From Actinomycetota bacterium (GTDB lineage: Bacteria > Actinomycetota > Actinomycetes > Actinomycetales > Microbacteriaceae), in NCBI GenBank assembly GCA_051751065.1, contig JBNJKL010000004.1:209596-273595 (forward strand): a DNA stretch of 64,000 nt, given 5' to 3'. Shown here one piece after another: positions 18,217 to 28,021 of this stretch; position 1 is the first letter of the stretch; each line of letters begins with the position of its first letter. The notes under the pieces are model-generated. The model saw only the letters and a program-made list of their open reading frames with translations. It did not search any database and was not told where the DNA came from. Made by a program: the position numbers and the translations under genes.

Positions 18217-18268
18217 TTTGCCGCGACACGCGGCATCCCCCGGACTCGACACGGCATGTCGCGGCAAA
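18217..18268. repeat. 52-nt palindromic element, copy 1 (left boundary of the RiPP cluster)
   Basis: tttgccgcgacacgcgg-N17-acggcatgtcgcggcaaa. The outer 12-bp arms TTTGCCGCGACA/TGTCGCGGCAAA are perfect inverted repeats. It has the same length and orientation as 27970-28021. Confidence 0.8.
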
Positions 18269-18314
18269 TGGCGAGGTGCGCCTGGTCCGACGCTTCCCCT
18301 GACGCCCGCACGGA

Positions 18315-19019
18315 TCAGACGAGCGTTTCCGTCCGCTGCTCGCGGCGCCCCACGGCTCGCAACGCCACCTGAAGCCTGTCCCGCACGTTCCATTTGGTCA
18401 TGACTCTGCCCAGGTGCGCTTTCACCGTCGCCTCCGACAGATGGAGGGTCGCGGCGATCTCGCGGTTCGTCATTCCGCGGGTGAGCAGACGCACGACCTC
18501 ACGCTCGCGCGGTGCGAGCAGTTCCTGGCCACCGCCGCTCGACGGCTCGCCGTGCGAGACCCGCGCGATCAGCGAGAGCATCTCGCGCAACACCAACTGC
18601 GAGGCGAACACGTGCCCGGCCGCGACGTCGGTGACCGCTCTGAGCAGTTCCTCGGGCGCCGCGTCTCGTCCGACGATCCCCGCGGTTCCGGCATCGAGCA
18701 GCGCGGGAACGGCGGAGAGCAGTTCAGTCGGGGTTAGCGCGACGACCCGCAGTCGCGTCCTCACCACGGCGATCGATGCGAGTGCGGCGGGGAGGTCGGC
18801 CGCGACGTCGTAGATGATCACGGGCGTTCGCACACCCGCACGGGTGCACGCCCGCGTGATCTCGTCTCCTGGCCCCGGGGAGATGTCCCCCACGAGGACG
18901 GTCAGGCCCGTTTCCGAGAGCAGATGGGAGAGGGCCGAGGCGACGAGCGCCTCGCGGGAGATGATCATGACCTCGTGAGCCGCACGCGCGGATGATCGAA
19001 GAGCCCCCAGATCTCGCAT
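18315..19019 (-). CDS. LuxR/FixJ-type transcriptional regulator with a degenerate receiver-like N-domain
   Basis: C-terminal LuxR HTH (LAPREREVVRLLTRGMTNREIAATLHLSEATVKAHLGRVMTKW). In the N-domain the acidic pair is replaced (IISREAL) and the Lys position reads GRDA. The start is ATG 19019 (RBS GGGGGAGAA) or ATG 19037. Confidence 0.8.
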   Translation of the reverse strand: MRDLGALRSSARAAHEVMIISREALVASALSHLLSETGLTVLVGDISPGPGDEITRACTRAGVRTPVIIYDVAADLPAALASIAVVRTRLRVVALTPTELLSAVPALLDAGTAGIVGRDAAPEELLRAVTDVAAGHVFASQLVLREMLSLIARVSHGEPSSGGGQELLAPREREVVRLLTRGMTNREIAATLHLSEATVKAHLGRVMTKWNVRDRLQVALRAVGRREQRTETLV

Positions 19020-19131
19020 GACCGCTTTCTCCCCCATCTCATAAAAGCGTTGATTGCGAAACAGTAGCACGGTTGTTCAGCGCGATCCGGGGGTTTCGTG
19101 TCCTCTCTTCGGGGGACACGCCCCAGGCACT

Positions 19132-19866
19132 TCAGACGACGTCGCGCATCAGGAACAGGCGGAACGCAACGCCCACAGCCACCGCCAGAAAGAGCGCAAG
19201 AACGGCCCCGGCGGCGACAGCGGTGATGCCCTCGCCGCCCCCGACTCCGATCGACTCGAGATCGAATCCGAACGCGCGCGCACCCAGCGGGAGCGGCAAC
19301 CACGCGGCGATGGCGGGAAGGAAACCGGCCAACGGCAGCGCGCCCCCCAGCGAGAGCGGGACCACGACGAGCGCGAGGAGATGCATGCGGACGATCACGC
19401 CGAGACTCAGGCCCCACACCGCCCCCACGGCCGCGAAGCACACCGTGCGCGCCACGGTCCACGCCTCGACCTCGCCCACGCCCCACGCGGCGAGCGCGAC
19501 GAGATGAGTGGCGATGACGGTACCCGCGGCGATCACGACACCACCCGCCAGGGCGAAGGGCAGTCGTGCGGCGAACGCGGGAAGTCGCCGGGTCAGCGTG
19601 ATCTGGCGGGACACGACGCCGTCGCGGTGGTCCATCGTGTACCGGAAGGAGGCGTAGATCGCACTGAGCATCACCGCCGAGAGGGTGCTCAGCGTGTGAA
19701 CCTCGTCGACGAAACTCTCCCGCACGGCAGCGGGAGCCGTGGCCAGTTCCGACGGCACCCCGATCAGGAACGTGAGCGGAAGGACCACCGCGATGAGGGC
19801 CAGCACCCGCAGGACGGTGTCGAAAGCGAAGGAGACTGCACGCGCGCGCAGCGCCGACGCGCTCAT
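19132..19866 (-). CDS. ABC-2-type transporter permease (cluster exporter, subunit 2)
   Basis: Start at ATG 19866 with an ATGA overlap with the upstream permease. Six hydrophobic helices. Track ORF 19132-20283 is over-extended. Confidence 0.7.
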   Translation of the reverse strand: MSASALRARAVSFAFDTVLRVLALIAVVLPLTFLIGVPSELATAPAAVRESFVDEVHTLSTLSAVMLSAIYASFRYTMDHRDGVVSRQITLTRRLPAFAARLPFALAGGVVIAAGTVIATHLVALAAWGVGEVEAWTVARTVCFAAVGAVWGLSLGVIVRMHLLALVVVPLSLGGALPLAGFLPAIAAWLPLPLGARAFGFDLESIGVGGGEGITAVAAGAVLALFLAVAVGVAFRLFLMRDVV

Positions 19867-20591
19867 CGGAATCGTCGCCGTGCGAGCACGTACGCCGTCC
19901 CCACGAGCGCCCCCGTCCAGAGGACGGCCACTCCGGCACCTGCGGCGACGGAGAGAACCTCCCCGCGGTGCATCGGGCCGGCCAGGGACGCGAGCGCCAT
20001 TCCCGGCGAGAACCTCGCTACCTCCGGCGCGGCATTCGTGAGCGCGTACTCGAGCCCCACCGGCACTCCGAGCGTGATCGCCGCACCCAGGTAGTAGTTC
20101 CGCACGATCCACCCGAGTGCGGCCCCCGCGGCGCCACCGAGCACGGAACCGACGAGTGCTCCCGCGACCGTGCGCCACAGCGCGGCGTCGATGACCACGG
20201 CCAGACCGTCGGAGCGCAGGATCGCCTCGGTCACCCCGAGCCAGACCGCGCAGACGAGAGCTCCCAGCCCCAGACCGACGCACGCCCCCGCGGCGAGCTT
20301 GCCCCAGAAGAGGCGCGTGAACCCCGCGGCCACGACCGTGCGGTCGATCGAGTGGTAGTAGTACTCCCTGGTCACCGTGTAGGCACCGGCGAACGCGGCC
20401 GTGACGAACGCCCAGGCGACCGCTTCGAACACGCGTGCCGTCGCTCCCGACGCCCCGAGACCGGGAAGGTCGTCGAGATCTCCTTGAGAGGTGAGCACGA
20501 TCGCGGGGATCATGAGCATCAGCACGAGGACGGCGAGGAACGTCAGCGCGCTGACGACTCGGAGCGTCTCGGAGCGGATGACGCCGATCAT
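19863..20591 (-). CDS. ABC-2-type transporter permease (cluster exporter, subunit 1)
   Basis: 242 aa polytopic membrane protein. ATGA overlap with the ATPase stop. Confidence 0.75.
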   Translation of the reverse strand: MIGVIRSETLRVVSALTFLAVLVLMLMIPAIVLTSQGDLDDLPGLGASGATARVFEAVAWAFVTAAFAGAYTVTREYYYHSIDRTVVAAGFTRLFWGKLAAGACVGLGLGALVCAVWLGVTEAILRSDGLAVVIDAALWRTVAGALVGSVLGGAAGAALGWIVRNYYLGAAITLGVPVGLEYALTNAAPEVARFSPGMALASLAGPMHRGEVLSVAAGAGVAVLWTGALVGTAYVLARRRFR

Positions 20592-26781: not shown

Positions 26782-27821
26782 GACGCCACGACACTCAAGT
26801 GCGGAGCTGTCTCAGCACCCACTGAACGGCCGCACCGCACGCCCAGTTCATCGATGGCCTGGCGGCACAGGCTCAGTGCATCGGGCCGCGAGAGCCCCAG
26901 GTGGCGGGCGACACGACGGGCGGCACGCTCGACTGTTCGTGAGGTCTGGACGACCTCCACGACAGCGGCCGACTCGGGCGTCAGCCGCTGCCGTCGCAGA
27001 GTGGTCAGGTCTGCGAGGATGACCTCCTGCGGGGACACCACGAGGAACGGATCTGTTCCGCGCGGCTCCGCCTCCTGCGCGTCATCCTGGACGAGAGCAC
27101 GGCCGAACCCCCCGATCAGGTCCTGTCCCGAGCGCAACCCCAGCGTGCGCATCAGGTCGCCGGCACGGAGGTAGCGCTCCAGCCAGGGCCGAGCGCCGAC
27201 GTCGCTCACGAGGACCTCCATCGGCGCGACGGCTCCGAGTGCCGCGATCCGCGGGCGCGGCGTGGCGAGGGCCGCACTCAGGCCCCGTACCTCACCGAGG
27301 TCGATGCCCTGCGCACCGAAGGTCATCCGTCCGTCGGCGTGCAGATGGAGCGATGTGGGCGGCTCCACGAGGAACGGGGCGACCAGAGCCTGGCGGTCCG
27401 CGATCTGCAGCCTGGGGTCGATCACGGCCGGAGGGAAGACGCCGGTGCTCCGTGCGAGATCAGCGTCCTCGATGAAGGCGCGCCAACCGTGAACGTCCCG
27501 AAAGCGCACGATCGTCGGCGCGAGGATCTCGACGAACGACGCGGCGACGTAGTCCTGCAGTTCGACGTGCAGATCGCCCACGAACAGGTCGTCACCGGAT
27601 TCCCGCAGTGCGCCGGAGTACGCGATCGCAATCGCCGGCCACTGCGCGTCGCCGGAGTCGATCGGGACGAGCATCGCATCCCGGGCCGTCGCGACGCGGC
27701 CGAGTTCCGCGAGCGCGACCCCGTGCTCCACGAAGAACACGCGATCGCACGTGTCCGTGTTTCCGGTGATCCATTCCTGGAGCACCGTCGCGCCGGGCGG
27801 CGTGGGGGTCGTGTCGTGCAC
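26778..27821 (-). CDS. mpaB: Daptide biosynthesis RiPP-recognition (accessory) protein with a C-terminal RRE-like winged helix
   Basis: 347 aa, GTG start after GGAAGGAA. I recognise no catalytic motif. The last ~80 aa (FLVVSPQEVILADLTTLRRQRLTPESAAVVEVV...LCRQAIDELG) look like a PqqD-type RRE. It is the first gene of the operon. Confidence 0.7.
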   Translation of the reverse strand: MHDTTPTPPGATVLQEWITGNTDTCDRVFFVEHGVALAELGRVATARDAMLVPIDSGDAQWPAIAIAYSGALRESGDDLFVGDLHVELQDYVAASFVEILAPTIVRFRDVHGWRAFIEDADLARSTGVFPPAVIDPRLQIADRQALVAPFLVEPPTSLHLHADGRMTFGAQGIDLGEVRGLSAALATPRPRIAALGAVAPMEVLVSDVGARPWLERYLRAGDLMRTLGLRSGQDLIGGFGRALVQDDAQEAEPRGTDPFLVVSPQEVILADLTTLRRQRLTPESAAVVEVVQTSRTVERAARRVARHLGLSRPDALSLCRQAIDELGVRCGRSVGAETAPHLSVVAS

Positions 27822-27910
27822 GCGGTTCCTTCCGTCGGTGGGCCTCGCTCACGGCCCGGAGCGACGGTAGCGAGCGCGGATCACCCCAGGCATCCGCCTT
27901 CCGTCGGCGC

Positions 27911-27953
27911 TGTCTAGACTTTCGTCGACAGGAGCGCGACCTTCGTCTAGACA
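27911..27953. promoter_or_regulatory. Paired GTCTAGAC palindromes (9-bp inverted repeat TGTCTAGAC-N25-GTCTAGACA) in the divergent mpaB/argG promoter region
   Basis: Two copies of a low-GC 8-bp palindrome lie 90-130 nt upstream of the cluster's first gene. The motif stands out in GC-rich DNA, and I did not notice it elsewhere in the window. Confidence 0.4.
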
Positions 27954-27969
27954 CCGCTCCGTCGCCTCG

Positions 27970-28021
27970 TTTGCCGCGACACGCGGTGCTGGCCGGCCAC
28001 GAGACGGCATGTCGCGGCAAA
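27970..28021. repeat. 52-nt palindromic element, copy 2 (right boundary of the RiPP cluster)
   Basis: tttgccgcgacacgcgg-N17-acggcatgtcgcggcaaa. The first 17 and last 18 nt are identical to 18217-18268, and the central 17 nt are diverged. Confidence 0.8.

Follow-up and report, generated by a model that had tools for sequence, protein, structure and literature searches.

Repetitive extragenic palindromic (REP) doublets forming hairpins (REPINs) have been described mainly in Proteobacteria, and toxin–antitoxin cassettes are typical cargo of integrons, which, to our knowledge, have not been reported in Actinobacteria. A REPIN consists of two conserved short repeats in inverted orientation, separated by a less conserved spacer, and forms a hairpin (PMC3337134). 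The Xer dif/pdif modules of Acinetobacter plasmids are discrete modules, often toxin–antitoxin, that are bounded by short dyad sites and carry no gene for a recombinase, their shuffling being the work of host recombinases supplied in trans (PMC6449649, PMC13141974). In the minimal mobile elements of Neisseria, strain-variable cassettes without mobility genes lie between conserved flanking genes, and exchange by homologous recombination in these flanks needs no boundary repeats (PMC3787668, PMC1797815). Here we analyze a stretch of 64,000 nucleotides (nt) of DNA, referred to below as the window (contig JBNJKL010000004.1, positions 209,596 to 273,595), in which a 52-nt palindromic element occurs twice in the same orientation, once at each end of a gene cluster for peptides that are made on ribosomes and modified after translation (RiPPs), of the daptide type. 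The source organism is a Microbacterium, and the argininosuccinate synthase ArgG encoded in the window shares 94% identity with its counterpart in Microbacterium sp. W4I20. We refer to the left and right copies as E1 and E2 (Table 1).

Two sister strains carry different cassettes between the same pair of elements

As observed in the two genomes that carry them, the two elements delimit, on the left and on the right, a replaceable slot between a Bat-like operon and argG in one Microbacterium lineage. The second genome, L042, is represented by one contig of 2,691 nt that comes from a separate sample (Logan, SRR32661566), and its last Bat gene is 92% identical to that of the window at the nucleotide level, as against 68–74% for other relatives. 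The order in L042 is the last Bat gene, element A, vapB (77 aa), vapC (PIN domain, 138 aa), element B and argG, with element A located 22 nt past the Bat stop codon and element B 8 nt past that of vapC. Between the same pair of elements, in the same orientation, the slot therefore holds a 9.7-kb daptide cluster in the window and a 0.7-kb vapBC pair in L042. BLASTN comparison of the two sequences gave 91.4% identity over positions 16440–18273, stopping 5 nt beyond E1, and homology restarted at position 27965, 5 nt ahead of E2. No vapBC remnant was found in the window. The order in L042 is not a repeat-induced misassembly, because elements A and B share no exact 31-mer. A recombination tract beside the element was considered and rejected, since the window and L042 remain evenly similar across the Bat genes up to the element (89–97% identity per 100 nt, with one 100-nt interval at 83%).

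The initial annotation of this DNA, made from the window alone, had tied the elements to a variable region with an exchangeable cassette, and this proposal is strongly supported by the vapBC pair of L042 and by homology that stops at the inner edges of both elements. Its prediction that relatives lacking the cluster would show a single element ahead of argG failed, because L042 has two and W4I20, UFMG61 and 179-I 3D3 NHS have none. The same results bear on the possibility that E1 and E2 are the attL and attR sites of an integrated island, formed when a circular daptide element recombined with a single chromosomal site and duplicated it. Direct repeats around exactly one functional unit would suit such an origin, as would the GC content at third codon positions, which is modestly lower in the cluster than in the other genes of the window (0.835 versus 0.878; Mann–Whitney p = 0.004), and the finding that in strain L043 a cluster of this type, 95% identical, has other left-hand surroundings. 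However, in the nearest strain without the cluster vapBC is flanked by two copies where one would be expected, the argG–daptide junction is free of the element in two other lineages, and the centre of the element, expected to be an identical crossover core, is its most diverged part. There is no integrase gene in or near the bracketed DNA, no tRNA or tmRNA gene in the window that could have been an integration target, and no match to the element in viral contigs or in phage and plasmid collections. Thus the features by which the attachment sites of integrative elements are recognized (an identical core, an integrase and a single-copy empty site) are all missing here. L042 largely refutes the attL/attR explanation, which we consider very improbable, and the related suggestion that the cluster was inserted at a single pre-existing copy fails for the argG–daptide junction, which was not made by insertion at the element, since two lineages have this junction without it.

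Structure of the element

Both 52-nt copies were found at the positions, on the strand and with the sequences first reported for them, and direct comparison agreed with the earlier description of identical ends and a diverged centre. The first 17 and the last 18 nt are the same in E1 and E2 (arms, 35 of 35), whereas only 8 of the 17 central nucleotides match. All nine differences are thus confined to the centre (P = 6.6e-6 under random placement). The motif TTTGCCGCGACA-N28-TGTCGCGGCAAA, with up to three mismatches (<=3), had two occurrences in the window, and 100 shuffles that preserved the dinucleotides yielded none. Palindromes are plentiful in GC-rich genomes, but these shuffles, together with the independent L042 assembly from another sample, which has both elements at the same locus, rule out chance similarity or an assembly artefact, to which we assign a negligible probability. 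The repeat unit is wider than 52 nt, having the form CYTCR-(52 nt)-YGGYG, about 62–67 nt, at positions 18208–18274 and 27961–28027.

Both strands of the element are predicted to fold into a 13–15-bp GC-rich stem with a large loop, with z-scores of -2 to -6.6 in DNA and RNA folding, and the stem can be extended to 14–15 bp with one mismatch. Rfam gave no match at gathering thresholds, and permissive thresholds returned only spurious matches to miRNA hairpins. With an nhmmer profile built from the four known copies, E1 scored 67 bits on the plus strand versus 26 bits on the minus strand, and all four copies (E1, E2, and A and B of L042) scored 62–67 bits in the forward and 26–36 bits in the reverse direction, which gives them one common orientation.

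Three of the four copies (E1, A and B) stand directly behind the ends of transcription units, the exception being E2; E1 follows the last Bat-operon gene at 29 nt and the convergent LuxR-family gene at 46 nt, counted from their stop codons. A GC-rich stem and, in these three copies, the position after a unit are what an intrinsic terminator would show. A short loop and a T tract are not present: no T tract follows the hairpin on either strand, the loop measures 16–28 nt, and a consensus terminator scan gave no flag. The earlier objection to a terminator, which was based on the location of copy 2 among divergent promoters, is weakened by L042, in which both copies directly follow co-directional operons. 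Because the L042 arrangement is co-directional, the present position of E2 between divergent promoters may be a leftover of the replacement of vapBC by an oppositely oriented cluster.

The centre of E2, TGCTGGCCGGCCACGAG, is an outlier among the four known copies and contains the perfect palindrome TGGCCGGCCA, whereas the centre of E1 resembles those of L042.

Arm variants common to both copies of a genome

Comparison of the four copies revealed no arm differences within the window (0 of 35), three of 35 within L042 and three to four of 35 between positional counterparts; the centres differ at 3–9 of 17 positions. Arm positions 16 and 40 are G and A in both window copies and C and G in both L042 copies. 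Since these genome-specific arm variants are common to the two copies of each genome, they argue that the two copies in each genome evolved in concert or arose from a common source, and the pattern indicates that the left and right copies have not descended independently. The arms in L042 form a perfect 18-bp dyad, which the two window-specific changes break. Because no compensatory arm changes were found, the arms are conserved as sequence, and a structural requirement is not demonstrated.

Conservation of this kind would also be expected of a protein-binding operator or insulator, in which the dyad arms, about 40 bp apart from centre to centre, would be bound by a protein that shields the slot from neighbouring transcription or supercoiling and would stay identical to fit the same protein. 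Genome-specific arm variants common to both copies look as if they were co-evolving with such a protein. In both strains the right-hand copy is located just upstream of the core promoter of argG; in the window, with divergent promoters on both sides, it is probably untranscribed. Against this, no candidate protein was found, and a gap of 28 nt between half-sites is unusual for an operator; we regard the explanation as improbable. Two specific forms of it were rejected. A daptide-specific or LuxR operator does not agree with the absence of the element from other daptide clusters and its presence around vapBC, where there is no luxR gene, and an ArgR-type site does not agree with the lack of the element upstream of argG in W4I20, UFMG61, L014, L017 and L044.

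The Bat–argG interval in other Microbacterium genomes

The Bat–argG locus is genuinely hypervariable, because five different contents were observed in six genomes. The interval holds eight unrelated genes in W4I20 and four in UFMG61, the closest named relatives, both of which also lack the daptide cluster. It contains a Zip transporter gene followed by vapBC in 179-I 3D3 NHS. In L014, a daptide cluster adjoins argG with different genes beyond the cluster, and the element was not found there, as it was not in the three preceding genomes.

The junctions themselves are informative. The daptide clusters of L014 and L017 (M50 protease 49% and 56% identical) have the same divergent arrangement with argG as in the window and keep its promoter blocks, but lack the element; relative to L017, E2 and 21 further nt make up a clean 73-nt insertion in the window. 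Likewise, the vapC–argG junction in L044 has no element. The daptide–argG and vapC–argG junctions therefore predate the element or exist independently of it. Both junction types carry the element in the clade of the window and L042, so that either the element was the point of entry for the cassettes or the cassette borders were the point of entry for the element. We rejected the possibility that vapBC moves together with the element as a mobile cassette, because a 78%-identical vapBC stands beside argG in 179-I 3D3 NHS without it.

At the spot in W4I20 that is equivalent to E1, after the Bat operon, there is an unrelated palindrome of comparable architecture (L011 positions 2134–2196), with arms of 12–17 bp and a 39-nt centre containing GGCCGG. 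The same contig has inverted repeats, GTTCACAATTCAGC, at positions 18574–18660, 19582–19651 and 19643–19727, around a gene for a 301-aa protein with an MTES_1575 domain, and these may delimit another small repeat-bounded unit.

Searches for further copies and resemblance to REPINs

No other whole or half copy was detected in the window by single-arm searches with up to two mismatches (<=2) or by the four-copy profile, and none was present in ~190 kb of other Microbacterium DNA, including ~17 kb from the near relatives L019, L020 and L043; the contigs of L019 and L020, which are near-identical strains, end before both junctions. Exact-arm scans of 185,579 species genomes and of the JGI metagenomes, which would miss variants like the L042 copies, found no other Microbacterium copy. 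The matches they returned were a hairpin-repeat family of Gemmataceae/Fimbriiglobus and a few isolated palindromes, one of them in Hymenobacter. The Gemmataceae/Fimbriiglobus family, ggTTTGCCGCGACACGgAGGGGAGCG-loop-CGCTCCCCTcCGTGTCGCGGCAAAcc, is an abundant long-stem hairpin repeat with several copies per metagenome-assembled genome (MAG), carried by L001, L003–L010 and most of L021–L041 (MAGs and JGI metagenome contigs), and its first 12–14 nt (up to 17 nt in L008) are as in the Microbacterium element. We rejected it as a homologue and judged the likeness a coincidence, because in a perfect palindrome the first arm fixes the second, so that only ~12 nt are effectively specified.

From its sequence, the element corresponds to the anatomical definition of a REPIN; membership of that family is unproven. 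Like the RAYT-mobilized REPINs of Bertels and Rainey (PMC3337134), it is extragenic, would form a hairpin, often stands at operon ends, lacks a target-site duplication and has copies that are more alike within a genome. It differs from them in length (52–62 nt versus ~90–110 nt), in having two copies at one locus, and in the lack of a RAYT gene in the window; moreover, REPINs are not known to delimit exchangeable cassettes. REP and REPIN families number tens to hundreds of dispersed extragenic copies per genome, and their cognate RAYT (Y1/HUH transposase) gene usually has copies on its flanks; the searches here found two copies in the 64-kb window and none in ~190 kb of other Microbacterium loci. 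A miniature inverted-repeat transposable element (MITE), which derives from a DDE transposase, would have inverted termini, which the element has, and a target-site duplication, which it does not, as all four copies have CYTCR on the left and YGGYG on the right. The initial annotation had suggested a REP- or MITE-like family that mediates cassette exchange. The REPIN-like anatomy and the difference in cassettes speak for that part of the suggestion, while the lack of further members, of a target-site duplication and of a transposase speaks against it.

On these grounds, the element could be a REPIN- or REP-like extragenic palindrome without any role in exchange, a small non-autonomous repeat which colonized operon ends in this lineage, perhaps by inserting preferentially 3′ of CYTCR, and acts at most as a hairpin at transcript ends, the contents of the slot being swapped between element-bearing alleles through ordinary homologous recombination in the flanking Bat and argG sequences. 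Beyond the anatomy (PMC3337134), this explanation would account for copies that are closer to each other within a genome than to their orthologous positions in the other genome, as in families that turn over, for the lack of a target-site duplication, as in HUH/Y1-type elements, for the CYTCR pentamer conserved 5′ of all four copies, for the three copies directly behind operon ends, and for E2 appearing as a clean 73-nt indel relative to L017. It has difficulty with the fact that the only two copies in 64 kb both border one cassette, and with the negative searches of Microbacterium DNA described above, the exact-arm scans being blind to variant arms. No RAYT or IS200-like (Y1/HUH) gene was found among the ~55 coding-looking open reading frames (ORFs) of the window scanned against Pfam, and independent insertion at the four borders of two cassettes would be an unlikely coincidence unless it was targeted. 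We consider a REPIN without an exchange role the main alternative, though a somewhat unlikely one.

The elements as possible recombination joints

We tentatively favour, at a little short of an even chance, the interpretation that the elements are recombination joints for swapping the contents of the slot. A purely passive role is hard to reconcile with two cassettes that are each bordered twice by the element, while element-free junctions exist elsewhere. Under the joint interpretation, slot contents would be exchanged at the conserved arms (CR-TTTGCCGCGACAYGC, with dyad symmetry), either through site-specific recombination carried out in trans by the product of a gene outside this locus, or through short-homology or hairpin-stimulated recombination between element-flanked cassettes. 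A possible pathway is that a circle carrying one element integrates and the old cassette is then lost by element-by-element deletion. As a secondary function, the GC-rich hairpins after operon ends could keep the transcription of the slot and that of its neighbours apart, by stopping or buffering it, and such a hairpin-terminator or insulator role may be additional to that of a joint.

Several known systems offer parallels. The copies resemble integron attC sites in being imperfectly palindromic, in having a variable centre between conserved ends, in sharing one orientation and in bounding strain-variable cassettes. Unlike attC, the element ends in TTTGCCGCGACA and TGTCGCGGCAAA and has no RYYYAAC/GTTRRRY core sites, there is no intI in the 64-kb window and no attI nearby, and a ‘cassette’ of 12 genes and 9.7 kb with its own promoters is far beyond the integron norm. 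The resemblance to pdif modules (PMC6449649, PMC13141974) lies in discrete units, here including a toxin–antitoxin pair, bounded by short dyad sites with no recombinase gene inside. The pdif sites are, however, 28 bp long (11-6-11, corresponding to XerC arm, centre and XerD arm), whereas the element has 52 nt with arms of 12–18 bp spaced by 16–28 nt; and pdif sites alternate in orientation around a module and lie on plasmids, whereas all four copies of the element point in the same direction and are chromosomal. Overall, the Bat–argG locus behaves like a minimal mobile element site of Neisseria to which specific boundary repeats have been added. It has the conserved flanking genes, the strain-variable cassettes and the lack of mobility genes, and differs in having palindromic repeats exactly at both homology breakpoints (PMC3787668, PMC1797815).

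A bolder version would see in the elements the sites of an undescribed cassette-exchange system of Actinobacteria that has no integrase in cis, in which a host protein reads the arms and inserts, excises or swaps modules at a fixed slot, from a two-gene toxin–antitoxin pair to a 12-gene RiPP cluster. Its logic would be like that of integron attC and Xer pdif sites, to which it would be unrelated in sequence, size and orientation rules. We hold this version to be distinctly doubtful.

A number of observations weigh against a function as joints. Element-bearing genomes number two, so that effectively one exchange was observed, and no excised circle, cassette array or single-copy empty site was seen. 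Contiguous arm identity amounts to 17–21 nt, which is short for RecA-type recombination. There is no covariation for the stem, the three private arm substitutions of L042 all being non-compensatory; and for the secondary function, the missing T tract and the loop of 16–28 nt mean that the hairpin is not a canonical intrinsic terminator. Pfam scans of the ~55 window ORFs revealed no integrase, transposase or recombinase, in agreement with the absence of integrase and transposase genes noted at the outset. The same interval varies in other Microbacterium clades without any such element, which is therefore not required for variability. Finally, the daptide cluster of L020/L043, from a third sample (94–95% nucleotide identity), departs from the window 4 nt past the LuxR stop codon, and the 134 nt that follow the LuxR gene in L043 contain no element; this near-identical cluster shows that cluster and element do not invariably move together.

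If the elements are true joints, they would represent a new route by which whole biosynthetic clusters and defence or addiction modules move in Actinobacteria with no linked integrase or transposase; such slots could then be recognized by a simple sequence hallmark and might serve engineering as natural landing pads. On a conservative interpretation, the locus is a clean two-allele locus, with a daptide cluster in one sister strain and vapBC in the other, both at one site of a few hundred bases in the chromosome, at which the gain and loss of a RiPP cluster is directly testable.

The daptide cluster, its flanks and minor features

The daptide class of RiPPs was described from the mpa cluster of Microbacterium paraoxydans, and daptide precursors end in Thr (10.1101/2023.03.08.531785). 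Judged by their gene set, the 12 bracketed genes of the window are a daptide RiPP cluster (Table 1). As in the mpa cluster, there are three Thr-ending precursors, an MpaB-like protein, MpaC, MpaD, MpaM, an M50 peptidase and an ABC transporter; the proteins of the window are divergent, and this comparison concerns the cargo of the slot and not the repeat elements. The three precursors are 40–45 aa long, each with an EELDALDAP-type leader, a hydrophobic core and a C-terminal Thr. Homologues of the M50 protease are labelled ‘daptide biosynthesis intramembrane metalloprotease’ at NCBI, and the nearest non-sister homologue is at most 56% identical (<=56%). The earlier statement that the ~9.7 kb between the elements holds exactly the 12 cluster genes, all on one strand, was correct, the strand being minus, as was the assignment of the outside genes to a Bat operon and argG.

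Table 1. Positions of the element copies, the slot contents and the flanking genes in the window
Feature	Position	Strand	Remarks
Last gene of Bat-like operon (371 aa), left flank	17072..18187	+	92% nucleotide identity to L042
Element copy 1 (E1), 52-nt core	18217..18268	+	Extended unit ~18212-18273; convergent intergenic region
Slot content, daptide-type RiPP cluster, 12 genes	18274..27964	-	Slot holds vapBC (0.7 kb) in L042
LuxR-family regulator (GerE HTH)	18315..19019	-	Final gene of the cluster
Two membrane permeases	19132-19866, 19863-20591	-	Basis includes synteny with L014, L015 and L020
ABC transporter ATPase	20588..21319	-	
Daptide intramembrane M50 metalloprotease (MpaP-like)	21304..22992	-	
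S-adenosylmethionine (SAM) methyltransferase (MpaM-like)	22989..23807	-	
Three precursor peptide genes	24200-24334, 24024-24161, 23865-23987	-	
Fe-ADH-type oxidative decarboxylase (MpaC-like)	24341-25531	-	
Class III aminotransferase (MpaD-like)	25528-26781	-	
MpaB-like protein, 347 aa	26778-27821	-	
Palindrome GCGCTGTCTAGAC-N25-GTCTAGACACCGC	27907..27957	none	Promoter region of the cluster; distinct from the element
Element copy 2 (E2), 52-nt core	27970..28021	+	Extended unit ~27965-28026; between divergent MpaB-like gene (start 27821) and argG (start 28081)
argG, argininosuccinate synthase, 477 aa, right flank	28081..29514	+	

Two further palindromic features belong to the daptide cluster rather than to its borders. 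The GTCTAG and GAGACGGAAGGCGGATGC blocks of the palindrome in the promoter region are kept in three diverged argG–daptide intergenic regions (the window, L014 at ~5040–5110 and L017 at ~130–200), and this palindrome may serve daptide clusters as promoter or operator, perhaps as the site recognized by the LuxR-family regulator. A tight hairpin of 16 bp with a 4-nt loop lies directly 3′ of the three precursor genes (window 23827–23862, L017 4268–4301, L020 1274–1311). Kept across daptide clusters, it probably adjusts the proportion of precursor to enzyme, acting as an attenuator or as a processing hairpin. In L042, a palindrome, TACCATGCGAATGGTA, at positions 1850–1866 just upstream of vapB is likely to be the autoregulatory operator of VapB, in which case the vapBC cassette would bring its own promoter.

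The Bat-like operon to the left of the slot has the order MoxR, DUF58, VWA, VWA, TPR and the 371-aa protein. To the right of the slot, the sequence GATAGACTGGGAGCC just before the argG ATG (window 28064–28083, with equivalents in L011, L013, L017 and L042) is conserved across Microbacterium. It is accompanied by a -10-like TAGACT at 28068–28073, only 7 nt ahead of the ATG and conserved in relatives, which suggests that the argG mRNA is leaderless or has a very short leader. Elsewhere in the window, an MFS transporter gene and MerR-like/lactonase genes carry at their 3′ ends the copies of an 87-nt direct repeat (1915–2001 and 3903–3989, 86% identical), which is unrelated to the element.

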